A stretch of 64,000 bases of DNA, filler included, from Stramenopiles sp. TOSAG23-6 (taxonomy: Eukaryota), in NCBI GenBank assembly GCA_900128565.1. It is 15 parts of 15 records of this genome, joined end to end, with 100 filler letters (N's around TTAATTAATTAA, not from the genome) between each part and the next. Parts side by side here need not be neighbours in the genome. Positions count along the whole stretch, not along the records: positions 55,696 to 59,858 come from LT637246.1; 14 more parts are not named here. One strand, written 5' to 3'. Below are positions 25,846 through 59,858 of the stretch, in pieces; within the stretch, counting starts at the first letter, position 1, and the number at the start of each line of letters is the position of its first letter. The position numbers were made by a program, and so were the translations under genes. The notes under the pieces were generated by a model. It worked only from the letters and a program-made list of their open reading frames with translations. It had not been told where the DNA came from and searched no databases.

Positions 25846-27374
25846 TATATGAGACGCAAAGTCAAGATGGTAAAAACAACCAAAGATTGAAAATGATGAA
25901 ACCCGACTATTTACGTTATCCAAGTGATGTTTTTAAGCTTCAAACATTTTCTGATCTCATTCAGATGTGTCTGTCACATTGTGGTGAAAAAGGAAAATTC
26001 ATTTTTATAAAGTATTTGAATGACTTTATGACGTTGTTGTGGAGTTGTGATTCAAATCAATTTGAATGTGATGAAAACAAAGTAGGGTTGATGAAAACTT
26101 TGTTGCTTGTTGTCAAAAATGCACCAGAGATAATTATTGAAACAATTCTGTCCCATACCTCTGTATGTTTTATTTTATTTTTGTATGAATTTTTTTTTCG
26201 TACGAAATTTTGTACCTAACAAATTTATGTTTTTTTTTTTGAAATATTTTTTCACAATACCTGATTCGAATCAAACATTTGCTGCTCGACTTTTAGATTA
26301 TCATATTTGTTTACGAACTTCAGATTTTTTTAAGAAATGGAATAATAATTTTTTACCAGTAGTGTATGAAATCATGTATGTTTTTTCATCATGAATTTCA
26401 AAATATATTATTTCTGTATGAAATTTCGTACCTAAACAAATGTTTTGACCAATTTTCAAATATTTTTTCACAATGTAGGTATCTATTTTGTCAGCACAAA
26501 CCCGATGAAGAAGGTTCCTTTTTCTCTGCACTGTCCAACCATAAAAATTGGCATTGGGCATGTACTAATATATGTATACTCTATTCCATTCATGTACGTT
26601 TTCATAATTGATTTTTGTACTAATTTCGAATTTATTTTTTTTTAATACAAAATGTTGTACCTAACGATTTTTTAAAACCAAAAAAAATAATATTTTCCCT
26701 CGATACATCATCCTTTACCGTGTGAAATGATGTCAAATATTTGGAATATTTGTGCGACACGAAGAGTTGGATTTCGTATGAATTATATAACAAAAATGGG
26801 AAAGTATTTGAATGATAACCCAAAACAAAGTTATTTTTCTCCTTTATTGCCATGTTTAAAAACTATTGCAAGAGATAGTGATGATTTTATGCGTATGTAT
26901 GAGCATGGCATACTCCCTTTTGTATTTGACTTTATTTCTAAAACTTTAAAAAGAATTGGAGACAATTTTTTTTCTCCAGATGATTTGAATGAAAATTTTG
27001 CATCTGAGCTGAAAAAGACAAATATAGCTATATCAATTATTGGAACTCTTCAACGTAATATTTGTGACGTTTTAAGTATTGATAAAGTATCTTCATCTAA
27101 TGATAATAATAATAATAATGATAATAATGATGCTGTGACTGCGAATATAGAATACATCAATGATTTAAAGGAAACCATTCTGAGAAACAAAACAATTCAG
27201 AACTTTCATCTGCATACGAAAATATTACACGATATGATGTCAAAATTAAATGATGAACAGCGAAGCATTCCTTTTATTTCTTCATGGATATCTCAAATAG
27301 ATCAAATTGATCTTCAACGTCAGTGTTGGATTCGAATATGTAAATATTTATCAATGTGTAACCCTAAACCCTAA
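25846..27374 (+). CDS. Unknown helical protein, 3' part; exons 25846-26162, 26263-26375, 26479-26593, 26709-27374
   Basis: Single continuous frame after removing three family introns ending CT, AG and AT. Confidence 0.65.
26163..26262 (+). mobile_element. Introner-like intron GT..CT
   Basis: CT direct repeat at both junctions; in-frame join. Confidence 0.75.
26376..26478 (+). mobile_element. Family intron GT..AG
   Basis: Ends CACAATGTAG; in-frame join. Confidence 0.75.
26594..26708 (+). mobile_element. Family intron GT..AT
   Basis: Joins YSIH-HPLPCE. Confidence 0.75.
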
Positions 27375-29649: not shown

Positions 29650-30657
29650 GTACGTTTTTAAAATTTTAATTTTTTTTATTTTGGTAGAAAATTTTGTACC
29701 TAACAATTTTTTTTTTGTACTACAATTTTTTTTTTTTTTCACAATTTAGGTTGCGGCTAGTCAAAATTATTAGTTATAGTTACTTCTACTCTTTCCGTCA
29801 TTAGATGGAGATTTTCTCCAAGTGGAATGAATCCTCAAATGGAGGTTTCGGAAATAAAAATTCCTCGTCAAAATCAAAATTTCCGTAACCCTACTCAAAA
29901 TAATGGAAATGGAAATAAGCAAGAAAATTTTTCTTTTAGAAACCCTAACCCNNNNNNNNNNNNNNNNNNNNNNNNNNNNNNNNNNNNNNNNNNNNTTAAT
30001 TAATTAANNNNNNNNNNNNNNNNNNNNNNNNNNNNNNNNNNNNNNNNNNNNATATATTGTGAATGCTCATGAAGTTTGAATTGCAATCTTGCAGAATTTG
30101 TTTGCACTTGAACTTTCATTTACTTACGTATCCGCTATAAGCTAGATAGTTGCTACTACAGGTATCAGAAACAGTTACTATGGTACCAAAAACTTTCGAA
30201 TGTCCCTTCGGGTATTTATTCGGGTGGCAAATCTCGATCTCGGTCACTCACGCTCAAGTGCGAGTGCAGAGTTTTGTCNNNNNNNNNNNNNNNNNNNNNN
30301 NNNNNNNNNNNNNNNNNNNNNNNNNNNNNNNNNNNNNNNNNNNNNNNNNNNNNNNNNNNNNNNNNNNNNNNNNNNNNNNNNNNNNNNNNNNNNNNNNNNN
30401 NNNNNNNNNNNNNNNNNNNNNNNNNNNNNATATATTGTGAATGCTCATGAAGTTTGAATTGCAATCTTGCAGAATTTGTTTGCACTTGAACTTTCATTTA
30501 CTTACGTATCCGCTATAAGCTAGATAGTTGCTACTACAGGTATCAGAAACAGTTACTATGGTACCAAAAACTTTCGAATGTCCCTTCGGGTATTTATTCG
30601 GGTGGCAAATCTCGATCTCGGTCACTCACGCTCAAGTGCGAGTGCAGAGTTTTGTCN

Positions 30658-33458: not shown

Positions 33459-34172
33459 ATGGGAGTCAGACCGGATCCAGTGAAACCTCAAGGTGATATT
33501 TCCGCGGCTGAAACTTATCGTAAACAAAGATATACACCGCCAAAAGAAGTAATTTGTGCTTGTAGTCCTGCAACCCGTCAACTTTACACGAAAGATTGTT
33601 TTTTTTTTTCTGCATTGGCGTCCTCATTCTTGTGTGCGTCCTTCCGTTCGTTAGTATTGTTGTTGGTTTCGCTGTTCTTTGGGATTTTATCGATCGTCTT
33701 GGCCAAGGTCGACCTCTTGATGGATATATATTGTCTTTTACTCGATGGTTTAACAAATGGACAGCAAATTTTAATTCAAGGTTTGTAAAAAAAAAGGAAG
33801 ACTCTTATATGCTTAATGTTGTCATCCTTCAGGGTATACTCTTACCGCTAATGTTTCTTGCAGCTGCTCGTTATGCTATTCAAAACGATGGAATTTCCTA
33901 TCCACTCATTCTTATATATCATATCCTTCGTATTGGTCCATATTTTATGAACTTTGCATATTGTTATACTCTTTGTCACAAAGAAGGTCATTCACGTCGA
34001 GGTCTATTTGCAGAGCCGTTTGTTTTCATCATGAATTTCAATTTTTTTTTGGTAGAAAATTCCGTACCTAACGAATTTTAGATTTGACATATTTTTCCCA
34101 ATATATGTATAATTCTTTACCATGTTTTCGGTATGTGTTTAATTGGTGGATTGGTTTATTTTACGGCGTAAT
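33459..34172 (+). CDS. Membrane fatty-acid-desaturase-like protein, 3' truncated (poly-T frameshift near 33600)
   Basis: TM helices, His box LCHKEGH, FNWWIGLFYG. Confidence 0.6.
34018..34106 (+). mobile_element. Introner-like intron GT..AT
   Basis: Joins FAEP-YNSLP..FNWW. Confidence 0.8.
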
Positions 34173-37400: not shown

Positions 37401-38390
37401 TCAATGACTTTCGTCACTTGTCTCAATTTGTTGTTCAATGTATTTCAGTAATCGTTTTAAACCTCTTAATTCTTCAGAAAGTTGGACTCTTTTTAACTCT
37501 AATTGTGTTGCATAAATTTTTTGTACACTAATGTTTTCTTCTTCCATTTGTGACTTTCTTTCAATCACTGAAAATATATAGGAAAGAATCATACCTATTT
37601 TGTAAGAGAATATTTTCAAATGTTACAATTTTGAATGTTTGTTACCAAAAATAGAATAAAAAATAAAATAAAAAAAATAAAAAAAAAAATAAAAAAATAA
37701 AAATAAAAAAAACGTACTTCGAATGTTCCACCAACAAAAATATCTACGAGAAAACCAAATCATTATACATACTGAAATAAAAACAGTTAAATATGATATT
37801 ATTGCATGAACTGTATCCGTTGTTGTTGAATCTATTGGAACATTTTGTGCTAATGATTCTGTAAGTAAACTGCATTGTACAACAATATTTAAAATGTTTT
37901 GATTTTTTTTGTTAGTTAAAAAAAGTTTAAAAAAAAAAAAAAAAATCAAAAATTTTGTTAGGTACAAAATTATCTATGAAAAAAAAAACATACATGGATA
38001 AAAAAAGCAAAAGAGGATTTGCTGTACATGCAAGTAATACAATATTTTTATCATATGCCATGGGTAATTCTGTTACTTGTTTTGTATTATTTGTATTATT
38101 TGTATTATTTGTATTATTTGTGTATGAAGAAGACGACAAAGAAGAAGAAATACTGACAATACTATTTGATGATGATGAAATATTCCCGGAATCATCAAAT
38201 TTCGTTTCCACACCATTAGGGTTAGGGTTAGGGTTAGGTTCAGACTCGATATCGAGAAGTTTTAATGGAATTATTTTATTATTTTTCTTTTTTGGTTTTG
38301 TTTGTTGTCCAATATTGCCATTATTTTTTGTATGATTTGTAACTTGATACATTTCTGGGAACAAAATTTCAATGGCAAAGGATGATATAA
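37401..38390 (-). CDS. 3' part of a membrane protein; introns 37870-37993 and 37595-37717
   Basis: TM segments and C-terminal coiled coil; frames join on removing two AG-ended family introns. Confidence 0.6.
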
Positions 38391-38707
38391 ATATATTTTG
38401 GAAAAATATTTCAAAAAAATTCTAAAAATATTTGTTAGGTACAAAATTTCGTACGAAAACCAAAAAAAACAATTTTTTTTTTTTTTTTTTTGTGTAAAAA
38501 AAAAAANNNNNNNNNNNNNNNNNNNNNNNNNNNNNNNNNNNNNNNNNNNNTTAATTAATTAANNNNNNNNNNNNNNNNNNNNNNNNNNNNNNNNNNNNNN
38601 NNNNNNATTATGAAAAAATATTTCAAAAAAAAAAAACTAAAATTTGTTAGGTACAAAATTTTTTTACCAAAAAAAAAATAAATTCAAATTTTGAAATGAA
38701 AACGTAC

Positions 38708-39676
38708 ATGAGCACGCACTAGTTGATGTGCACAATAAAACAATTCACTTTTAAGACCCAGATCCACCATTGTTGATATTGTAACAGGGAGATTACGGTA
38801 TAAAAATGGATCGCGTTTGCGAACTTCAATAGTAAGAGCGTGAGCTTTGGTTGTATCATGTCGATAATATAGTTGTTCAGCTTCAGCAGATAAAATATCA
38901 GCATTATCCGCTAAACCCCACTCCGAACGCAGTTTTTGGAAATGGACTTCCACATCATCAGTAGGATTGTATTTAAGGATTCTACTGCGATAGATTAGTT
39001 TTGTTAACTTGGCTACTGGTGCTAATTCTTCACTATTTGTTTCTGTACCGAATGGTAAAGAAGTTAATAATTCGTGTTCTTTACTCTCTTTCAGCATTTG
39101 TTTATCCACAAGTTGTTCAAAAGCATCATAACAATGCGCATCACAACGCATAGCGTGTACAAACCAAGCTGCAGCTCGACTACGATTTTCTGCTGCCTCC
39201 AGAGCTTTAGCCTTTAGAGTGCATAGTTGTGCAATTACATTAATTTCTTCACCCACTACTGCAGGATGTGTTCGAACGAGTGATTGCAACGCAGATCCAG
39301 GTCCTGAACCTTCAGGTGTGTCTGGTATGATACGATCTAGTAACGATAATGCTTCTTCATTCATACCCTGTGCGAGCATACACTGCGTAGCTAACCGGCA
39401 AAAGTGTGGATATCCAGGCTGGAGGAGATATTCATATTTACCTAACAAATATAAGGCTTGTTCATACTTGTTACTCCGGAAATAGGCATCTGCAAGTAAA
39501 AATACATCTGACGGCTCACCAGAAGACATTGTGACGACTTTATCTGCATAGAAAATTGCACCAGCGAGCGAATGTTGTGACAAGCAACTTTTCGCAAGAG
39601 CACGATATTTGACACAAGCACTTACAATATTAGGAGCCACTTTGGGGTTTGACCATTGAGACGTACTCTCGGACAT
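38708..39676 (-). CDS. CDC16: Anaphase-promoting complex subunit 6, first exon
   Basis: AIFYADKV..DVFLLADAY, CYDAFEQLV..ML, LFYCAHQLV; TPR repeats. Confidence 0.9.
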
Positions 39677-40044
39677 ATCACTTTAAATTTTCAAAAAAAA
39701 GAATAAAGCTGCACTACTTACCTAATGATGACTGAAAGGAAATTCACGTTAAATCCAATGACAAATATAAACCGACAATTGAACTGTACAAAGAAAATTG
39801 CTGCTCTTTCTCTCTCCACAGAAAAAATGACGGAGCACTCCACACTGGCAGGCTCGTGCAATTTCAGGCTCAAAGACGAGGAGCATTGATTGATGTCGGA
39901 TGTCATATTTTGACTGCTGTACCTACAAATTCGAAATTCACATGAATCATGTCCTACATTTCAATAAATGTTTAAAATTTATTTATCAAGAATGTACTTT
40001 TTTTATTTTAAAATGGCGCCAGTACTTTAATGTATTCTTTCATG

Positions 40045-42780
40045 TTACAATTTTCCTTTATTTTTCATGGTAACTACTGTATTCCATTCATCTGTACCTG
40101 GACATAATCTATGGTAACCTATTGAGGCTGTTGACGTACTTACATCAGAGTGACACATACCTGCTTTTGGCATTTCCCCAAAAGGGCGAGGTATTTCTCC
40201 ATGTAATACATCAACAATATCTCGTGCCAAATTCATTCCAATTGCTGCTTCACTCGCTCTTCGAGACTTGCGTTGTCCCTTACGGCGAATCGCCCATTTG
40301 TATAATAAATTTCGGTTGAATGGCATAGGTGCAAGTAATCCTATAGTATCCTTTATCAAGGCTGACTTAATTCGCTTATCCAAATCATTTTCAATACCAA
40401 ATGATGGTGAGGCATTCACTTCAAGTAACCATGGTCGAAGTGAAGAATCAATAATTATATCATAACCATACACTTCGAAACAATTTGGTTGGTGTTTGAT
40501 TAAATCATCAGCACAAACTAGTGACTTTAAAATCAATATATGTATATTTTTCTGTAACTTTTGTGTATCAATATTTAATTTTTCTAGGCGTTGTAAGAGG
40601 AAACTATATGAAAGTTTACTTCCTCCTACTTCTGAGGATGGTGCAGTCATAAGAGGTGTACATGATATTGTGCTACGGTTTTGATAAAAGCTTTCAGTAT
40701 TTTTCGATTCTTTTGTCCTTATCTCCGGTTTTTGTTGTACCGATGAATTTGTAAGATGCATTCGAAGATCTTTGAGGTAATCCCTATTTATTGGTTCCTC
40801 AGAGTCGTCTGGATCTTCGTTACCAATTTTATACTTGACCGTTGACATTCTCGCAAAGCCTTCTGTGTAGATAAAAGCCTCTAGGGGTTGGAATGATGTA
40901 ACAAGTACATATAATCTCAGATCGAATTTGTATCCATCAATCAGTAATGGTTCATCAATATATTGCTGTACCACATGTATTTTGGAAAAATATTTCAAAA
41001 TATTTTTTGTTAGGTACAAACTTTCGTACGAAAAAAAAATCATACAAAAAAAAACATACAGCTGCCTCGGAATAGCGTAGTGTTGGACTATCTGTAATTC
41101 TAATTCCTCTTCCACGACTCATCAGTGCGGGCTTGACAATCCAAAGATTTTGTCTTGTAACATTTACACTGCTAGCGTTTGAACGTTTATCGTCCATCAC
41201 ATGTTGTGAATGGATTAATTGATCCTTTCGCTCAAAAAATGCTTTTGTAAATGCGTTATATTCTGTGGGTAAAATAAATGTGGGTGGCTGTATCGAAAAA
41301 GTAGATAATACACCCCCCATTTTCCAATATCTCGCAAGTGTTTTACACAATAAATCTTTTCTTGTCAGGCAACGAGCACCAACAAAGCGATGAACACGTT
41401 GCCAAGGCAAAAGTTGATCAAATGCAAGACGTGGTTCCTGGAAACACCACAAGATATTCCAAGCCATCCGAGAACTATACGGTGTGCTCAAAGAAGTCAT
41501 TGATTTAGCAGACATACTTTTGTAAGTATTGTATGTCTTAGTGTCATCTTTAGGGTCGGTCTTGAATTTAAACTCACGAGTAGACTCATCTGGAAGCTCC
41601 CGCATTCCTAGTGCATTAAACTGCTCATGTACTAGACTATATACTTCAGATTTTCGTTTCGATACAACAAACCATAGTTGTTGATTACCCAACTTTTTCG
41701 ATAAATTCATCATTTTATTATTGTAATGGTATCTATTATGCTTACTTTCGTCGTTTGTCGTTTTATTTAGATTATGCAAAAACTTTACACTACTCAGAGA
41801 TTCTTCGCCATTATCTTTGGAGTAAAATTCATTATATCCACCGCTAACTCGAATACTACAAAATTTATTGTAACTTTTCAAAGAGGATTCGCTTGCCCAT
41901 GGCTTATACGTATTCTCTATACTATTCCATATCTTTAATAATTCCCTTTCAGCACTTTCGCTATGCCGTCGACTAGTCTGTTTATTCTGGCCTTGTTTTA
42001 AATTTTTCATCAATAATGAGGGGCGGAGCAACTCGATTTCATTAGGCCAAAGTTTTGAAAGTGGAATAATGTAATTGTCACTATCATAATCTATTTTATC
42101 TTTCTGTGTATCATTCTTGACGTTTTTAGTGAATAAAATATCTTTGCTGATTATCATGCGTTTTGGTGGTAACTTATCAAAATTTGTCACACGTTTTATC
42201 GCATTTTCGTCATTAGAACCTACTACATTCCCTATTGTCACTTGATTACTTATACCATCATTTTCATCTAGAATGAAAGATCCAGAAGGTGCGAAATTTG
42301 CGCCTCGCTTATCATCAGTATTCAATGTACTTACAGCATGCAATTTATCCTTACTATCGCTTTGGTTCACCTCAATTGAATGAGGTTCATGTAGAAATTG
42401 TTCTTCATTCTTATTTATTTCACAACATTCATCATCTTCAAGGTTACCCTCTTCATTCTTATTTATTTCACCACATTCATCATCTTCAAGGTTACCCTCC
42501 GGAGTCCAACCATCGTACCAATCATCAACTTCAGATTCTTCTTTGTCGCAGAATTCAATATTTGTTTGATCTAATTCTATGATAGGATCTTTTTGTACAC
42601 TTGAGCTATCATTTATATGTTTATCGAGTTCAACTACTGTATTATTATTCGTACTATTTGATTCATCCAATTCTATCATAGGATTATTTTGTGCATTTAT
42701 ATTTTCATGATGCTCAATTACTGTATTATTATTCGAGCTATTTGATTCATCTGATTCAATGATGGGATTATTTTGTGCAT
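40045..42780 (-). CDS. Tubulin-tyrosine-ligase-like (polyglutamylase-type); intron 40975-41059
   Basis: WIVKP..SRGRGI, VVQQYIDEPLLIDGYKFDLRLYV, HLTNSS, FEVYGYD, WLLEVNASPS. Confidence 0.93.
40975..41059 (-). mobile_element. Introner-like intron GT..AT in TTLL (duplicate at 45249-45333)
   Basis: Joins YSEAA-VVQQYIDEP. Confidence 0.9.
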
Positions 42781-42981
42781 NNNNNNNNNNNNNNNNNNNN
42801 NNNNNNNNNNNNNNNNNNNNNNNNTTAATTAATTAANNNNNNNNNNNNNNNNNNNNNNNNNNNNNNNNNNNNNNNNNNNNATTATGAAAAAATATTTCAA
42901 AAAAAAAAAACTAAAATTTGTTAGGTACAAAATTTTTTTACCAAAAAAAAAATAAATTCAAATTTTGAAATGAAAACGTAC

Positions 42982-43950
42982 ATGAGCACGCACTAGTTGA
43001 TGTGCACAATAAAACAATTCACTTTTAAGACCCAGATCCACCATTGTTGATATTGTAACAGGGAGATTACGGTATAAAAATGGATCGCGTTTGCGAACTT
43101 CAATAGTAAGAGCGTGAGCTTTGGTTGTATCATGTCGATAATATAGTTGTTCAGCTTCAGCAGATAAAATATCAGCATTATCCGCTAAACCCCACTCCGA
43201 ACGCAGTTTTTGGAAATGGACTTCCACATCATCAGTAGGATTGTATTTAAGGATTCTACTGCGATAGATTAGTTTTGTTAACTTGGCTACTGGTGCTAAT
43301 TCTTCACTATTTGTTTCTGTACCGAATGGTAAAGAAGTTAATAATTCGTGTTCTTTACTCTCTTTCAGCATTTGTTTATCCACAAGTTGTTCAAAAGCAT
43401 CATAACAATGCGCATCACAACGCATAGCGTGTACAAACCAAGCTGCAGCTCGACTACGATTTTCTGCTGCCTCCAGAGCTTTAGCCTTTAGAGTGCATAG
43501 TTGTGCAATTACATTAATTTCTTCACCCACTACTGCAGGATGTGTTCGAACGAGTGATTGCAACGCAGATCCAGGTCCTGAACCTTCAGGTGTGTCTGGT
43601 ATGATACGATCTAGTAACGATAATGCTTCTTCATTCATACCCTGTGCGAGCATACACTGCGTAGCTAACCGGCAAAAGTGTGGATATCCAGGCTGGAGGA
43701 GATATTCATATTTACCTAACAAATATAAGGCTTGTTCATACTTGTTACTCCGGAAATAGGCATCTGCAAGTAAAAATACATCTGACGGCTCACCAGAAGA
43801 CATTGTGACGACTTTATCTGCATAGAAAATTGCACCAGCGAGCGAATGTTGTGACAAGCAACTTTTCGCAAGAGCACGATATTTGACACAAGCACTTACA
43901 ATATTAGGAGCCACTTTGGGGTTTGACCATTGAGACGTACTCTCGGACAT
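42982..43950 (-). CDS. CDC16: CDC16 first exon (duplicate contig)
   Basis: Translation identical to 38708-39676. Confidence 0.85.
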
Positions 43951-44318
43951 ATCACTTTAAATTTTCAAAAAAAAGAATAAAGCTGCACTACTTACCTAAT
44001 GATGACTGAAAGGAAATTCACGTTAAATCCAATGACAAATATAAACCGACAATTGAACTGTACAAAGAAAATTGCTGCTCTTTCTCTCTCCACAGAAAAA
44101 ATGACGGAGCACTCCACACTGGCAGGCTCGTGCAATTTCAGGCTCAAAGACGAGGAGCATTGATTGATGTCGGATGTCATATTTTGACTGCTGTACCTAC
44201 AAATTCGAAATTCACATGAATCATGTCCTACATTTCAATAAATGTTTAAAATTTATTTATCAAGAATGTACTTTTTTTATTTTAAAATGGCGCCAGTACT
44301 TTAATGTATTCTTTCATG

Positions 44319-47054
44319 TTACAATTTTCCTTTATTTTTCATGGTAACTACTGTATTCCATTCATCTGTACCTGGACATAATCTATGGTAACCTATTGAG
44401 GCTGTTGACGTACTTACATCAGAGTGACACATACCTGCTTTTGGCATTTCCCCAAAAGGGCGAGGTATTTCTCCATGTAATACATCAACAATATCTCGTG
44501 CCAAATTCATTCCAATTGCTGCTTCACTCGCTCTTCGAGACTTGCGTTGTCCCTTACGGCGAATCGCCCATTTGTATAATAAATTTCGGTTGAATGGCAT
44601 AGGTGCAAGTAATCCTATAGTATCCTTTATCAAGGCTGACTTAATTCGCTTATCCAAATCATTTTCAATACCAAATGATGGTGAGGCATTCACTTCAAGT
44701 AACCATGGTCGAAGTGAAGAATCAATAATTATATCATAACCATACACTTCGAAACAATTTGGTTGGTGTTTGATTAAATCATCAGCACAAACTAGTGACT
44801 TTAAAATCAATATATGTATATTTTTCTGTAACTTTTGTGTATCAATATTTAATTTTTCTAGGCGTTGTAAGAGGAAACTATATGAAAGTTTACTTCCTCC
44901 TACTTCTGAGGATGGTGCAGTCATAAGAGGTGTACATGATATTGTGCTACGGTTTTGATAAAAGCTTTCAGTATTTTTCGATTCTTTTGTCCTTATCTCC
45001 GGTTTTTGTTGTACCGATGAATTTGTAAGATGCATTCGAAGATCTTTGAGGTAATCCCTATTTATTGGTTCCTCAGAGTCGTCTGGATCTTCGTTACCAA
45101 TTTTATACTTGACCGTTGACATTCTCGCAAAGCCTTCTGTGTAGATAAAAGCCTCTAGGGGTTGGAATGATGTAACAAGTACATATAATCTCAGATCGAA
45201 TTTGTATCCATCAATCAGTAATGGTTCATCAATATATTGCTGTACCACATGTATTTTGGAAAAATATTTCAAAATATTTTTTGTTAGGTACAAACTTTCG
45301 TACGAAAAAAAAATCATACAAAAAAAAACATACAGCTGCCTCGGAATAGCGTAGTGTTGGACTATCTGTAATTCTAATTCCTCTTCCACGACTCATCAGT
45401 GCGGGCTTGACAATCCAAAGATTTTGTCTTGTAACATTTACACTGCTAGCGTTTGAACGTTTATCGTCCATCACATGTTGTGAATGGATTAATTGATCCT
45501 TTCGCTCAAAAAATGCTTTTGTAAATGCGTTATATTCTGTGGGTAAAATAAATGTGGGTGGCTGTATCGAAAAAGTAGATAATACACCCCCCATTTTCCA
45601 ATATCTCGCAAGTGTTTTACACAATAAATCTTTTCTTGTCAGGCAACGAGCACCAACAAAGCGATGAACACGTTGCCAAGGCAAAAGTTGATCAAATGCA
45701 AGACGTGGTTCCTGGAAACACCACAAGATATTCCAAGCCATCCGAGAACTATACGGTGTGCTCAAAGAAGTCATTGATTTAGCAGACATACTTTTGTAAG
45801 TATTGTATGTCTTAGTGTCATCTTTAGGGTCGGTCTTGAATTTAAACTCACGAGTAGACTCATCTGGAAGCTCCCGCATTCCTAGTGCATTAAACTGCTC
45901 ATGTACTAGACTATATACTTCAGATTTTCGTTTCGATACAACAAACCATAGTTGTTGATTACCCAACTTTTTCGATAAATTCATCATTTTATTATTGTAA
46001 TGGTATCTATTATGCTTACTTTCGTCGTTTGTCGTTTTATTTAGATTATGCAAAAACTTTACACTACTCAGAGATTCTTCGCCATTATCTTTGGAGTAAA
46101 ATTCATTATATCCACCGCTAACTCGAATACTACAAAATTTATTGTAACTTTTCAAAGAGGATTCGCTTGCCCATGGCTTATACGTATTCTCTATACTATT
46201 CCATATCTTTAATAATTCCCTTTCAGCACTTTCGCTATGCCGTCGACTAGTCTGTTTATTCTGGCCTTGTTTTAAATTTTTCATCAATAATGAGGGGCGG
46301 AGCAACTCGATTTCATTAGGCCAAAGTTTTGAAAGTGGAATAATGTAATTGTCACTATCATAATCTATTTTATCTTTCTGTGTATCATTCTTGACGTTTT
46401 TAGTGAATAAAATATCTTTGCTGATTATCATGCGTTTTGGTGGTAACTTATCAAAATTTGTCACACGTTTTATCGCATTTTCGTCATTAGAACCTACTAC
46501 ATTCCCTATTGTCACTTGATTACTTATACCATCATTTTCATCTAGAATGAAAGATCCAGAAGGTGCGAAATTTGCGCCTCGCTTATCATCAGTATTCAAT
46601 GTACTTACAGCATGCAATTTATCCTTACTATCGCTTTGGTTCACCTCAATTGAATGAGGTTCATGTAGAAATTGTTCTTCATTCTTATTTATTTCACAAC
46701 ATTCATCATCTTCAAGGTTACCCTCTTCATTCTTATTTATTTCACCACATTCATCATCTTCAAGGTTACCCTCCGGAGTCCAACCATCGTACCAATCATC
46801 AACTTCAGATTCTTCTTTGTCGCAGAATTCAATATTTGTTTGATCTAATTCTATGATAGGATCTTTTTGTACACTTGAGCTATCATTTATATGTTTATCG
46901 AGTTCAACTACTGTATTATTATTCGTACTATTTGATTCATCCAATTCTATCATAGGATTATTTTGTGCATTTATATTTTCATGATGCTCAATTACTGTAT
47001 TATTATTCGAGCTATTTGATTCATCTGATTCAATGATGGGATTATTTTGTGCAT
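44319..47054 (-). CDS. TTLL gene (duplicate contig)
   Basis: Translation identical to 40045-42780. Confidence 0.85.
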
Positions 47055-54289: not shown

Positions 54290-55595
54290 ATGAGCGGTGA
54301 TGAGGAACAAGGCGAAGAGCAAAATTCCCTGGAAGCTCGAATTGAACTGTTGGAATTCCAACATGATACTGGGCAAATTACAGACGAGCAGCTTGAACGA
54401 CGGGTGGATGCTTTGGAGAGAGAGATTACAAATCAAGCTGTCTCCAATGGTATCCTTCCATCTGATTTACAGGAAGTAGTTTGTGATGATGACGAAACTA
54501 TTGATGATGTCATTCCTACTGCGGAAGTGATCGTCCCTGTTAAAGGTGGCATTAAGAAAAAACAATCAACATTTAGGCGAAACCTCACGTATATGGATAC
54601 AAACAACGACGGAAGAGTGTCGATGTCTGAGTGGGGATCTGGAATTTCTCGAATTATTTCTCATCACGATAACCGCTTGCACCAAAATTCTAGACTTAAA
54701 CCGAATCAGAAAGTTATCACTGACTTGCCGTTGTTGGAACAAAAAATATTTCATTTACGAGGTTGGTTATGCTTTTCTTTCCAAATATTTTTTGTCTTTT
54801 TAGGTTGTTTTATGATGCAATATTTGAAAGAAGAAGAGAAAATTGAAGCAACAGATAAACTCAAAGTGATTGGTTTATTAGGAACACTGGGCATTCCTTT
54901 TTTTATGGGTTTGTTAACTATTTGTCGGAATACATACTGTCTTTTAATACCTCTATTTCTAATTTACACCGTGTACGAAACCTTCATGTACGTTTTCATC
55001 ATGAATTTCAAATTTAATATTTTTTCCGTACCAAATTTTGTACCTAAACAAAAAAGATTTTTTTTTTTTTTTTACAATACATGCTTGGTGTGATGAACTG
55101 GAGCACACACTCTGGGTTCATTCAACAAATCTTATTTTATCAGTTTATTGGGGTCTTCTGTACAGCATTTATTTCTACTCGAATTGAAGTTGACGATACT
55201 ACTGGTAGGGAAGTACGTTTTCATTATGAATTTCAAATTTATTTTTTTTTCGTACGAAATGCTGTACCTAACAAATTTCGAATTTAATTTTTTTTACAAT
55301 ACATGAGGTGTTGAACTCTTATTTTGCGGTAGCATGTGGCTGGGTTTGTACTTGGCCTGTAGCTTTAATACTTAATGGCATTAAACCTGACTTTTTTGCT
55401 GGAGATAGTACATCAGAAGGTTTGGGTGGAAATAGTTACAAAGTTGTTATTCTCGCTATAGTAGTAGCTGGCGTGATTATGTACGTTTTCAAAATTAATT
55501 GTTTTTACTGACATGTTTGTTTCATACGAAATTCCATACCTAACGATTTTTTTTTTCGGTAAAAAAAAAAAAATATTTTTTCACAAAATATGAAC
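54290..55595 (+). CDS. Bax inhibitor-1/TMBIM-like membrane protein with an N-terminal EF-hand-like loop, 3' truncated
   Basis: DTNNDGRVSMSEW; multiple TMs including PLFLIYTVYETFMLGV; three family introns. Confidence 0.55.
54988..55082 (+). mobile_element. Introner-like intron GT..AT
   Basis: Joins ETFM-LGVM. Confidence 0.8.
55213..55304 (+). mobile_element. Introner-like intron GT..AT
   Basis: Joins TGRE-EVLNS. Confidence 0.8.
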
Positions 55596-56466
55596 NNNNN
55601 NNNNNNNNNNNNNNNNNNNNNNNNNNNNNNNNNNNNNNNTTAATTAATTAANNNNNNNNNNNNNNNNNNNNNNNNNNNNNNNNNNNNNNNNNNNNTTTTC
55701 ATTGTGAATTTCAAATTTATTTATTTTTTTTTTTTTTTTTTTTAGTTTGAAATTTTGTAATTAACAATTTTCGATTTTAATTTTTTTTTTAGTTCGAAAT
55801 TTTTTTCCTTAAAAAAAAAAAATTTTTTTTTTTTTTTTTTGGAAAAAAAAATTTCATAACAAACGAATTTCAAATTGTAAGAATATTTTTCATAAGACAT
55901 GCTTCACTTTGGGAAAATGATCCAAATTCATTTGTTAGTAAAGCAGAATATTCTGGGGTTGGAGAATATGTTTGTTTTTTTCATTTCAATTTCAAATTTA
56001 TTTTTTTTTGTACTACTAAAAATTTTTACTCAAACTTTTTTTTTTTTTTCGGTAAAAAAAAAAAAAAAAATATTTTTAACAATATGTACACTCAGATCGG
56101 TAGGTCCAGATTTTATTCGTTCTGTTCTTAATACAAAATCTCATTTAGGGTGTAGACGAAGAGCATCATCCTGGGGATCTGCTGCTGCTGTACTTGCTAT
56201 GAAATCTAATATGAAAAAGGTAAGCAGTATTGAAAGTGAAAATGCTAAAATTGAAAGTAGAAAGATTTTTTTATTGGTTTTAGACACGATTGTATGTTTT
56301 ATTTTTTTTTTTTAACAAAGAAATCGAATTTTTTTTTATAGTAAATTTTGTACCTAACAAATTTTTTTTAGATTTTTTTCAAATATTTTTCCAAAATACT
56401 TTTTCGTACGAAATTTTGTACCTAACAAATTTAAGTTTTTTTTTTCAAATATTTTTCACAATACAT

Positions 56467-59400
56467 GTACTTTATATCGTGTTCTTTACTATAGAAAATC
56501 TCTATGGGCTTATGTAGAAAAAAATGCTATACATAAAATGAGTATAATAGATAAACAACTCAGACCTCTTTCTACTGCATTGGCGCATGTACGTTTTATT
56601 TTTTTTTTTGAATTTCTAATTGTTTTTCATACGAAATTTTGTACCTAACGAATTAAAAAAATATATTTTTTCACAATATATGGAACTTTATCAAGAGTCG
56701 GTAGACCTTTTGGTTGTGCTATGTTGCGATTACTTCCAAAAAAGAATTGGAAAGGTTTGCGCCCAATAATGAACCTTTCATCGTGGAACAATACTGCTTG
56801 GCCGAAAGCAATGCGACCCATTTCAAAAAAAAATAAGAAATTACCTTTCTTTTCTTATCGACCACTACCCATCAATAAAGTTTTATTAAAAGTTTTTGAT
56901 GTTTTAAAATATGAAAAGAGTAAAAAACCAAAATTGCTCGGTGCTACTGTATTTAGTATTGCTGATATGTACAACCGGTTAAAATCATTTGTAGAACTAT
57001 GGCGAGGATTTCGTGTAGCAGATGAAAAACCTTTTGGTGATGGACAAAATGGAAAGAATAAACCTTTATACTTTGTTGTTGGTGATGTAGCGAAATGTTA
57101 TGATACAATTGTACGTATTTGTCATTTCAATTTCGAACATTTTTTTTTACTATGAAAATTTCGTACCTAACATTTTTTTTTTAAAATATTTTTTTACAAT
57201 ACTAAATCAAAAGATTTTATGGAAACTTTTAACAAAAAAGGTTTTGAAAAGTGAAGAATATGTCATTCATAAATATTCAGTCTTGTTCGTTTTCAAAATT
57301 GAATGTTTTACCTAAATTGTTTTTTTCATACGAAATATTGTACCTAACGATTTTTTTTATTTTTTTTTACCGAAAAAAAAAAAATATTTTTTCACAATAT
57401 TTGCGATCTTCAGAATCTAAGAATAAAAATAAAATTGCAAAGTGTAGCAATAAAGATGAAATCGTGACTGATTTCAGACGTTTAGCTCTACCTAGATTAT
57501 CAAGTACACTTCAATTAGCTACTGAAGTCTTTCAAAATCATCCTCTTAAAAGACACAAAATTAACCCTAACCCTATCCCAACTGGAAAAAGACACAAAAT
57601 TAACCCTAACCCTAGGGTTAACCCTACTCGAAAAGATCATACAATATCAACTTTATTAGCAAAATCTACTGAAAAACAAAATGAAAAAATACACAAAACT
57701 GAAAAATGTTTTGATATAAAGCAAAGTAAACAAAAAGGGAAAATATTTGTCGATGGTATTGTATGTTTTCATCATGAATTCCAAATTTATTTTTTTGTAC
57801 CAAACTTTGTACCTAACAAATTTCGAATGTAAAATATTTTTCACAATACTTGTACTTTGCATTTGAATTTCATTTTTTCTTTTTTTTTTTTTCACCAAAA
57901 CATATTTCATACTTACAAAAAAACAATGTTTTACATATTTTTGCACAATATTTGTTCATGGATATGTGAAACGAAAAAATATCTTAAAATTAATTCGTGA
58001 ACATTTGAGAAGAAATATGTATNTTTTTTTTTTTTTCAATTTTGATTTTTTTTCGTACGAAATTCCGTACCTAACAAATTTTACCAAAAAAAATATTTTT
58101 ACAAAAACATAGTACGATTAGGTACAAAATTCTATCAGCAAATGGTCGGTATTCCTCAAGGTTCTGTACTATCCGCTTTATTATGTGGATTATATTATGG
58201 GCAAGTGGATGATGCGTTAGTCAATGCTGCAATGCAAAACATGAAAAAATACACGAAATCAAAACATAAATTTGATGAGGACGAAATTATTTCAATTGTA
58301 AAAGAAACAATGATGAATAGATTAGGTAAAGAAAATGACAGTGACGATGAACTAATGGGTGGAATTTCTTTATCCAATGACAATAAAAATAATGAAAATA
58401 ATGAAAATAATGAAAATAATGAAAATAATAGTTTTAATCATAAAAAAAAGAAATTTGGTACGGATTGTAATACAAAAAATAATAATAAAAAAAAAAGAAA
58501 GAGTGAATGTCTTGAACAACATTACACATACAATACTAATACTAATAATACGAATAATACGAATAATACTAATAATACGAATAATACGAATAATGTTTGT
58601 GTGACATCTACAACATCATCTTTTCAAAATTCGTTTAGCAAGAAATTTAGTACGAAATTTGGTACAGGTTCAACTTCAAATTTGCTACATATTGATGATG
58701 ATGATTTATTTGGTGGAATTCCTCAAATGAATTGGATAAAAGATGAAAAGAATAACAATAACGACACGAATTCTGTACTTTTACGTTTAATTGATGATTT
58801 CTTATTTGTAACGCCTTCATTACAACTTGCAGTAGCTTTTGTTCATAAATTACATGCTGGAGATAGAAAATTAGGATTTCATGTACGTTTTCAGAATTCA
58901 TTTCAATTTTTTTTTTTTTTTTTTTTTTNGTACAAAATTGTATACTTAACAAAACAAATGAAAATTTGTCATATTATCCTAAAAGTAAAGGTCAATTCGA
59001 GTAAAACATGCGTAAATTTTGATGTATGTGTAAAAATCACTGACCCTAAAGATAAAACAAAAACAATAAAAAAAAAGATAAAAAATATAGAAAATAACAC
59101 ACTTAGTTGGTGTGGTTTAGAAATTAACACAAAAACATTTGAAATAATTACTGATTTTTCAAGGTATCGCATGTTTTCATTGTGAATTTCAAATTTATTT
59201 ATTTTTTTTTTTTTTTTTTTAGTATGAAATTTTGTACCTAACAAATTTCGAATTTAATTTTTTTTTTACAATACATGCGATCAATCGCTTCGTTCTGCGA
59301 TTCAATATAATTCAGGACTCGGACACAAACCTGGCCAGACGATTATTGATCATCTAAAAAATTTCATTAAACATAAATGTATGTTTTATCTTTTTTCAAT

Positions 59401-59858
59401 TTCGATTTTTTTTTTTGGAAAGTTTTGTACCTAACAAAGTTTAATTTTCTTTTTTTTGAAATATTTTTCCAAAATACATGTCAAAAATTATTTTTTGATA
59501 GGTGTATCAATAAAATATCAACAATGTTACAACATATATGCAATGTGTTGATTATTGCAGCAATGAGATTTCATCTATTGTATCGAATTTTACAACGAAA
59601 AAAAATCAAAAGAACAAAACGAAAAAAACGGAAAAAAAAAGGAAATATGAAAAAGGATACTTTTACTAAAAATGAAAAGAAGAATGAAAATTCAAATTTC
59701 CTTTTTAGCATATTATTGGAAATTAGCAAATACACGCAAATTTTAATCCGAAAACGATTTTCCCCAGCATCATCTTTACAATACCAAAAATCAAATCGAA
59801 ATGAAAATAATGAAACAAATCGAAATGAAAACAATAAAACAAATTCGTTTCCATCGCA
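56467..59858 (+). CDS. TERT: Telomerase reverse transcriptase, partial; exons 56467-56588, 56682-57110, 57205-57284, 57403-57760, 57954-58018, 58111-58882, 58991-59168, 59277-59378, 59480-59858
   Basis: T motif RVLYYRKSLW, LRLLPK/GLRPIMNL, motif A DVAKCYDTI, B' GIPQGSVLS, C LRLIDDFL, E SWCGL, CTE AMRFH. Confidence 0.95.
56589..56681 (+). mobile_element. Introner-like intron GT..AT in TERT
   Basis: Joins the T-motif exon to motif 1. Confidence 0.85.
57111..57204 (+). mobile_element. Introner-like intron GT..TA in TERT
   Basis: Joins CYDTI-NQKIL (motif A). Confidence 0.8.
57285..57402 (+). mobile_element. Introner-like intron GT..TT in TERT
   Basis: Joins KYSVL-RSSE; TT direct repeat. Confidence 0.75.
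57761..57953 (+). mobile_element. Two tandem family introns (57761-57851 and 57852-57953), both GT..TT
   Basis: Joins IFVDGI-VHGYVKR. Confidence 0.75.
58019..58110 (+). mobile_element. Introner-like intron GT..AT in TERT
   Basis: Joins HLRRNI-VRLGTKFYQQMVGIPQGS. Confidence 0.9.
58883..58990 (+). mobile_element. Degenerate family intron GT..AG in TERT
   Basis: Joins LGFH-VNSSKT (motif D). Confidence 0.8.
59169..59276 (+). mobile_element. Introner-like intron GC..AT in TERT
   Basis: Joins DFSRYR-DQSLR. Confidence 0.8.
59379..59479 (+). mobile_element. Introner-like intron GT..AT in TERT
   Basis: Joins KHKC-QKLFFD. Confidence 0.85.

Follow-up and report, generated by a model that had tools for sequence, protein, structure and literature searches.

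How can two introns come to lie side by side in a gene with no exon between them, and how would such a pair be removed from the transcript? This question is raised by positions 57759-57953 of a 64-kb stretch of DNA from Stramenopiles sp. TOSAG23-6 (GCA_900128565.1), referred to as the window, where an earlier note had described back-to-back elements with TT repeats in the TERT gene and had suggested a transposon footprint. The window consists of 15 contigs of about 4.2 kb, sorted by size and joined by N44-TTAATTAATTAA-N44 linkers; its DNA is AT-rich (24–40% GC) and carries ordinary eukaryotic genes. Our analysis revealed that the interval is composed of two members of one repeated intron family, and we lean towards the explanation that both were made by transposon-type insertions duplicating TT, with an older copy (unit B) arriving first and a younger one (unit A) later. 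Should the two final bases of the intron prove to be copied from the target, this would be a natural case of an intron-making mobile element whose 3′ end is set by the element and not by AG, which would bear on burst-like intron gain and on the flexibility of 3′ splice-site recognition. Because of its three copies of the rare TT, the abutting pair would bear the most direct mark of insertion having occurred repeatedly at a single site.

Two abutting units in the TERT gene

The gene hosting the pair lies on contig 55696-59858. Two of its exons match human TERT (7qxa_A), namely exon 56649-57110 (residues 657-719, E 0.0024) and the exon starting at 58112 (residues 818-854 and 861-890, E 4e-7). 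A search for close TERT relatives resulted in a fungal TERT fragment (E 8e-4) as the sole other match of near length, exon 55998-56291 had no match in the PDB, and a peptide search querying the final 60 residues encoded by the exon before the pair gave no match. The order along the gene is an exon ending in ..GGTATT, unit A, unit B and the exon from 57954, and the interval 57759-57953 reads TT + A + TT + B + TT. The individual features are as follows:

57403..57760, plus strand: TERT exon upstream of the pair, ending in phase 0 with ..GGT ATT; the TT at 57759-57760 is the first of three TT copies
57761..57851, plus strand: unit A, 91 nucleotides (nt), GTATG...CACAATAC followed by TT; donor GTATGT at 57761-57766
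57810-57817, 57834-57849 and 57850-57851, plus strand: family-typical signals of unit A, i.e., branch box TACCTAAC, 3′ motif ATATTTTTCACAATAC and the second TT
57852..57953, plus strand: unit B, 102 nt, GTACT...GCACAATAT followed by TT; donor GTACTT, without G at +5
57910-57916, 57935-57951 and 57952-57953, plus strand: signals of unit B, i.e., branch region TACTTAC, 3′ motif ATATTTTTGCACAATAT and the third TT
57954..58018, plus strand: TERT exon downstream of the pair, 65 nt, starting in phase 0 with GTTCAT (GTTCATGG); aligns without gaps as far as GIPQGS

Retention of unit A leads to a stop after 23 codons and retention of unit B to a stop after 4, while no stop remains once both are excised; removal of exactly 193 nt (57761-57953) preserves the TERT frame. 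These stops bear out the earlier statement that the pair needs either recursive splicing or removal as one unit. When the acceptor rule of the family (see below) was applied to the four stretches that separate the structure-matched exons, positions 56649-58879 yielded 1734 nt without any stop, and shifting any one acceptor in this part by ±1 or ±2 resulted in 15–75 stops.

Using the motif-B′ part of the exon after the pair as the query, phmmer against the full library retrieved 137 TERT-type matches, of which 21 were picked for sufficient sequence upstream of the match and aligned with the in silico spliced TERT product. The conserved ..FVD.. block of exon 57403..57760 aligned with all 21 homologues and was followed by ..EH.. 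and GIPQGS; at the join, neither any of the 21 rows nor that of the window revealed a gap. Thus, no exon is missing and nothing is retained between the two units, and the exon between them has zero length according to this alignment. The layout that had first been described therefore stands, and the missing exon that could have undone it was not seen.

The same alignment bears on the explanation that the pair is an artefact or not a matter of splicing, i.e., that the assembly lost a short exon or fused two loci, or that the sequence is eliminated at the DNA level as in ciliates. In its favour, the contigs strung together in the window stem from an amplified assembly of single-cell type that includes duplicated contigs, and none of the contigs listed for four sequencing runs bridges the pair. 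Moreover, the sequences eliminated by ciliates are short, AT-rich and bordered by 2-nt direct repeats, much like the elements described here. On the other hand, the 21 homologues leave no space for additional residues, and the boundary between A and B falls at element ends and not within shared sequence, where assemblers mis-join. As for elimination, donor, branch box and strict sense orientation would be unneeded for DNA excision, and element sequence was found in contigs from RNA libraries. Taken together, we regard an explanation of this kind as highly improbable. Nor do the elements fit ciliate-type eliminated sequences, which are TA-bounded and independent of orientation: their borders are AT, TT or CT, 26 of 27 copies lie in sense with splice signals, and standard stops close the reading frames.

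The intron family

A profile built from 19 clean copies of the family resulted in 54 matches with E < 1e-3 on the 15 contigs of the window. The 27 full copies that were curated are 85–133 nt long (typically about 95 nt) and share a median pairwise identity of 70%, with a maximum of 91%. Their signature consists of a GTAYGT donor, the branch box TACCTAAC located 40–62 nt from the end, and a 3′ motif of 16 nt, ATATTTTTYCAMAATAC (...ACAATAC). According to the frame test, the acceptor lies 2 nt beyond this motif; the last intron bases are usually AT, and AG is not required. This rule was also borne out at two junctions of an amino-acid transporter gene (homologues with 47–55% identity). Flanking open reading frames (ORFs) are longer in the sense orientation for 26 of the 27 curated copies, the exception being unit B, whose 5′ neighbour is unit A. 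As expected of introners, many similar introns occur at unrelated loci of the window, and their exact removal restores the frame in silico, three junctions being ungapped against homologues. Standard gene finders will mis-annotate nearly all genes of this organism. Further members on which the analysis draws are:

57111..57204, plus strand: family intron in TERT; flank TT, end TA
57285..57402, plus strand: family intron in TERT; flank TT, end TT
58019-58110, plus strand: family intron in TERT, the next after the pair; flank AT, end AT
18556..18657, minus strand: family intron in the amino-acid transporter gene; flank GG, end AT; splits a conserved glycine codon
18765..18905, minus strand: degenerate relative, GTATAT...CACAATAA followed by AA; flank AT, end AA; without the TACCTAAC box and without G at +5
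26163..26262, plus strand: family intron; flank CT, end CT; the sole non-AT end off the TERT contig in the core set of copies (defined below)

The two transporter introns deserve closer description. At 18556..18657, the junction showed no gap in 6 homologues, 5 of which have Gly at this position, and the last exon G is the first base of the Gly codon. Since reading this intron two bases further left creates an in-frame TGA (hand reading), the GT...AT register is supported. The exact removal of 18765..18905 is demanded by homology, with six of seven homologues ungapped and the seventh ending there, its profile match being weak (E 0.041).

Both halves of the TERT pair belong to this family. Unit A was found with an nhmmer E value of 8e-15, its donor (14.2 bits) equals the family median, and its 3′ motif (18.2 bits) has the highest score of the family. 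For unit B, the family profile recovers only the 3′ half (57905-57957, E 0.057), while its best global score against the family is 37.5, compared with 16.4 ± 3.3 (maximum 26.5) for 200 mononucleotide shuffles. Its donor reaches −0.9 bits, whereas the family median is 14.2 and the next lowest value 9.4, and its branch box agrees at 5 of 8 positions, where all 26 other copies agree at at least 7; its 3′ motif (11.0 bits) is inside the family range. Unit B is a real but decayed family copy, and the description of a near-consensus copy directly beside a diverged one was correct.

Beyond the window, the TERT contig was represented in six sequencing runs, namely two of one organism, a third of the same study, a seawater metagenome and two seawater metatranscriptomes. 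The element was hugely repeated in seawater DNA sequenced independently and in the run of another cell. A scan of metagenome contigs with a 17-nt core revealed 64 loci and no full element, a scan of viral contigs gave six chance matches only, a two-motif pattern was found neither in genome contigs nor in viral contigs, and a look-up of look-alike stretches in other genomes returned none.

Four family-like introns end in AG, located at 37993 (minus strand), 26376 (plus strand), 58883-59000 (plus strand) and 29650-29760 (plus strand). Two of them have AG at the usual site 2 nt past the motif; in the other two, the 3′ motif is lost and an ordinary AG further downstream is seemingly used. The family grades into canonical introns. 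A near-palindrome, CGTACGAAATTTTGTAC, which contains a donor-like GTACG, lies just before and over the branch box of the family consensus (e.g., 56403-56421), and no structure is predicted for it. RNAalifold applied to 26 copies gave no base pair, i.e., no consensus RNA structure or pairing of the intron ends is predicted.

Origin of the pair

If insertion duplicates two bases of the target, the last two bases of the exon should recur as the last two of the intron. An association of this kind had been proposed in the earlier note, whose cited examples, both matching (CT/CT at 26163, TT/TT at 57285) and mismatching (AA/AT at 55213, GG/AT at 18657, CC/AT at 34018), proved correct. It was examined by a permutation test on a core set of 30 copies, in which the two dinucleotides are identical in 21 copies, compared with a permutation mean of 13.7 (p 5e-5). 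Ends other than AT match their flank in five of six cases (p 9e-5), and all four TT ends stand beside TT flanks (Fisher 5e-4). As the TT-ended copies are scattered across the family tree, TT goes with the insertion site, irrespective of the lineage to which a copy belongs. An extended set (35 copies) comprised the core, four less certain copies (ends AA, AG, TT and GT beside AT flanks) and one AT/AT copy; for this set, the two permutation values were 0.0027 and 6e-4, and four of five TT ends had TT flanks (p 0.0014). Among the four less certain copies, 29650 more likely uses a downstream AG, and the AT/AG copy at 37993 was outside the test. Since a G directly follows most copies (20 of 26), a duplication of 3 nt (NNG) is as possible as one of 2 nt.

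Relationships among the copies concern the order of events. The closest copy to unit A is not unit B (67% identity) but 55213-55304 on a different contig, with 83–86% identity and a fork support of 84/92, and the terminal branch of unit B is 0.6, compared with 0.089 for unit A and a family median of 0.11. These unequal branches, together with the off-contig relative of unit A, fit an old unit B and a later insertion of unit A at its 5′ junction, and favour two separate insertions over a shared origin of the two. In such a course of events, the older copy B would have inserted at ..ATT^GTT.., duplicating TT, and the younger copy A would then have inserted at the 5′ junction of B, ..ATT^GTA.., which resembles the original site, duplicating the same TT again. 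After these two insertions, TT would be present three times and the units would adjoin without any exon; TT-A-TT-B-TT is the order expected if an element re-inserts at an old 2-nt duplication.

Several results weigh against this origin. Four of the five matching non-AT ends are located on the TERT contig (56292, 57285, 57761 and 57852), and two of them share the middle TT. With the TERT contig excluded, 22 copies with one non-AT end remain and p rises to 0.18; excluding unit B and the composite unit gave p values of 0.033 and 0.009. Thus, the proposed association exists as an excess within the window, but nearly all of it is due to the TERT contig. In eight copies, an AT end is found next to a flank other than AT (CT three times, and TT, GG, CC, AA and GT once each), and in the GG/AT copy the exon G belongs to the conserved Gly codon, so that AT there was not simply copied from the flank and can be independent of it. 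Conversely, AT flanks occur with the ends AA (confirmed by homology) and with AG twice and GT once (by frame only), and copies with and without a match have diverged to a similar degree (both about 0.72 in mean identity to the majority sequence; hand average). The inverted ends, GTA(T)..(A)TAC, comprise just 3–4 nt, which falls short of the terminal inverted repeats (TIRs) of introners; the idea of a small TIR element with GTAT..ATAC ends is not supported, as these ends are present in only 11 of the 27 curated copies. None of the 42 ORFs of at least 140 aa in the window revealed a transposase domain. Neither the G at +5 nor the branch box typical of the family is present in unit B, yet 18765-18905 is removed although it lacks them too. 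Finally, an approximately unbiased (AU) test failed to reject a sister relationship of A and B (p 0.209), which leaves room for an old local duplication.

One alternative is that there is no target duplication and the element carries its own ...ACAT end, spreading, e.g., by reverse splicing and recombination or by takeover of older intron positions. AT before the donor would then be a preferred exon context, and TT and CT would have arisen from AT by point mutation, agreeing with the flank by chance or being tolerated only where they agree with it. This explanation draws on the eight AT ends beside non-AT flanks, including the one at the glycine codon, on the AT-flanked copies ending in AA, AG or GT, on the non-significant association off TERT and on the lack of usable inverted repeats; furthermore, the sense orientation of 26 of the 27 copies would follow directly from an RNA-level mechanism. 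It has difficulties with the strict pairing of TT ends and TT flanks in the core set and with the unrelated bodies of the TT-ended copies, and the exact TT-A-TT-B-TT triple would be hard to obtain via independent mutations. Moreover, we know of no splicing step that compares the last two exon bases with the last two intron bases. Overall, an origin without duplication seems rather unlikely to us.

A second alternative starts from the AU result and assumes an old tandem duplication of one intron plus TT by unequal exchange or slippage, after which the inner signals became redundant and unit B decayed. Local duplication does occur in this family, as seen at 16906-17085 and 3385-3565 (see below), and the decayed donor and branch box of unit B are the very signals that would be redundant in such a pair. 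However, the nearest relative of unit A is located on another contig and is not unit B, the two terminal branches are very unequal for copies of the same age, and the 3′ motif of unit A has the top score of the family though it would be as redundant as the donor of unit B. We therefore consider a tandem duplication improbable and retain two successive insertions as the favoured origin.

In the published model for the introners of Micromonas pusilla (IE1) and Aureococcus anophagefferens, the element supplies the donor (GT or GC), the target duplication supplies the acceptor dinucleotide, and splicing removes the element and one copy of the duplication (PMC11282704). The family described here is similar in its numerous short introns of similar sequence at unrelated sites. 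While those introners are described with a 3-nt duplication, clear TIRs and a normal AG acceptor (PMC11282704), the repeat here is 2 nt (or NNG), the inverted ends measure 3–4 nt, and the end (AT, TT, CT or AA) is set by its position after the 16-nt motif. In the tunicate Fritillaria borealis, short transposons have given rise to species-specific introns whose non-AG 3′ ends (AC, AT) come from the duplicated target (PMC11282704); these introns depart from the canonical 5′ end as well (AG-AC, AG-AT) and carry inverted repeats, whereas our family has a strong GTAYGT donor, a conserved branch box and a 3′ motif. Repeated introns of Amoebophrya show direct repeats of 3–5 nt over the exon/intron borders and varied non-canonical ends, with no transposase that would explain them (PMC7789003); they differ by inverted repeats of 8–20 nt that pair the intron ends and by many border motifs, compared with no predicted pairing and one donor type here. 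A stwintron of Lipomyces starkeyi is one intervening sequence that is removed in either one or two reactions (PMC7138796), but fungal stwintrons are nested, while units A and B abut. A broad survey counts only GT, GC, GA and AT donors and AG and AC acceptors as familiar (PMC12130899), and our literature search, judged from its listings, returned no published GT...AT intron family of this kind. Within these accounts, the family differs from the Micromonas, Fritillaria, Amoebophrya and Lipomyces cases in combining a strong canonical donor, a position-set non-AG end, near-absent inverted repeats and head-to-tail composites. It may be regarded as an introner variant with target-derived ends and not as a new category; the transposon footprint is the best reading available and is partly supported.

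Removal of the pair, further composites and other features

The 3′ motif of unit A and its TT directly abut the GTACTT donor of unit B. Following from the frame, the pre-mRNA would have to lose all 193 nt, either by two splicing reactions in either order or by one from the donor of A to the acceptor of B. Either order would be workable, since an intact junction for the remaining unit is restored once the first has been excised, and all routes yield an identical mRNA. The weak donor and branch box of unit B suggested removal in one step. Considering the removal of 18765-18905, the top-scoring 3′ motif of unit A and the frame solutions for a second composite at 56292-56466 (see below), one-step and two-step removal appear about equally probable from the sequence. 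The stricter notion that unit B is unable to splice alone for want of the +5 G and the branch box was dropped, as 18765-18905 is removed without them. Drosophila ratchet points, i.e., recursive splicing over zero-nucleotide exons, subdivide very long introns and use AG|GT. The pair resembles them in that an acceptor directly abuts a donor and consecutive removal is possible; here, two whole units of a repeat family, each of about 100 nt, lie side by side.

When four sequencing runs were compared with the TERT contig, no joint at 57760/57852/57954 was among the 15 of 581 joints listed, and no RNA contig over 57760-57954, empty site or splicing intermediate was among the records listed. Short RNA contigs cover TERT exons at 56707-56978 and 58713-58886.

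As a general model, offered tentatively and quite possibly wrong, the spliceosome would set the 3′ cut by a ruler, 2 nt past the 16-nt motif of the element, so that the duplicated bases would act as the acceptor and sense insertions would be spliceable at once. Old junctions would recreate the target, and copies would pile up head to tail and be removed by recursive splicing over zero-length exons.

An identity as U12-type (AT-AC) introns was rejected. U12 introns have an ATATCC-type donor and a branch site near the 3′ end, whereas the family has a GTAYGT donor and a branch box 40–62 nt from the 3′ end, and the leftward reading of the 18657 copy results in a stop.

TERT carries a second composite upstream of the pair:

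56292..56466, plus strand: second TERT composite; full copy 56292-56401 (flank TT, ending ..AAAATAC followed by TT), then TTTC, then a truncated copy
56406-56466, plus strand: 5′-truncated copy in this composite, GTACGAAA..ACAT

According to hand reading, the sole in-frame solution that fully obeys the family rule consists of two removals (110 and 61 nt), leaving a 4-nt exon TTTC; the frame is likewise kept by one GT...AT removal that stops 4 nt short. Elsewhere in the window, 16906-17085 (minus strand) is a fusion of two almost identical copies, joined at ..ACAAT|GTTTTA.. and lacking about 8 nt at the junction, and in 3385-3565 (plus strand) the branch region is internally duplicated, with TACCTAAC at both 3441 and 3510.

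The bases preceding the donor are unevenly distributed. TT stands before the donor in five of eight TERT copies, compared with 1 of 22 elsewhere (p 0.002); as a guess, weak selection on a rarely expressed TERT might let poor acceptors persist there. CT before the donor was found solely in the GTATGTTTTATTTT subfamily (4/11 vs 0/16, p 0.019).

Telomere-like (AACCCT)2 12-mers occurred 13 times as exact matches in the window, compared with none in 100 shuffles, and most of them lie in open frames, reading Asn-Pro-Asn-Pro:

468, 642, 672, 980, 2167, 8251, 18126, 18166, 33118, 38218-38235, 57563 and 57602: (AACCCT)2 12-mers

Two of these are located within a TERT exon, inside a duplicated block of 39 nt, and some element copies in the sequencing runs adjoin ..AACCCT.. 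ends. Contigs 38607-42780 and 42881-47054 are identical (0 differences in 4174 nt), and contig 17185-21375 carries a terminal direct repeat of 55 nt; both are probably features of the assembly. With no small nuclear RNA (snRNA) among its hits, the Rfam scan of the window returned only a fragment of eukaryotic small-subunit rRNA at 8545-9155 on the minus strand (RF01960, 477 bits, model positions 4-605).

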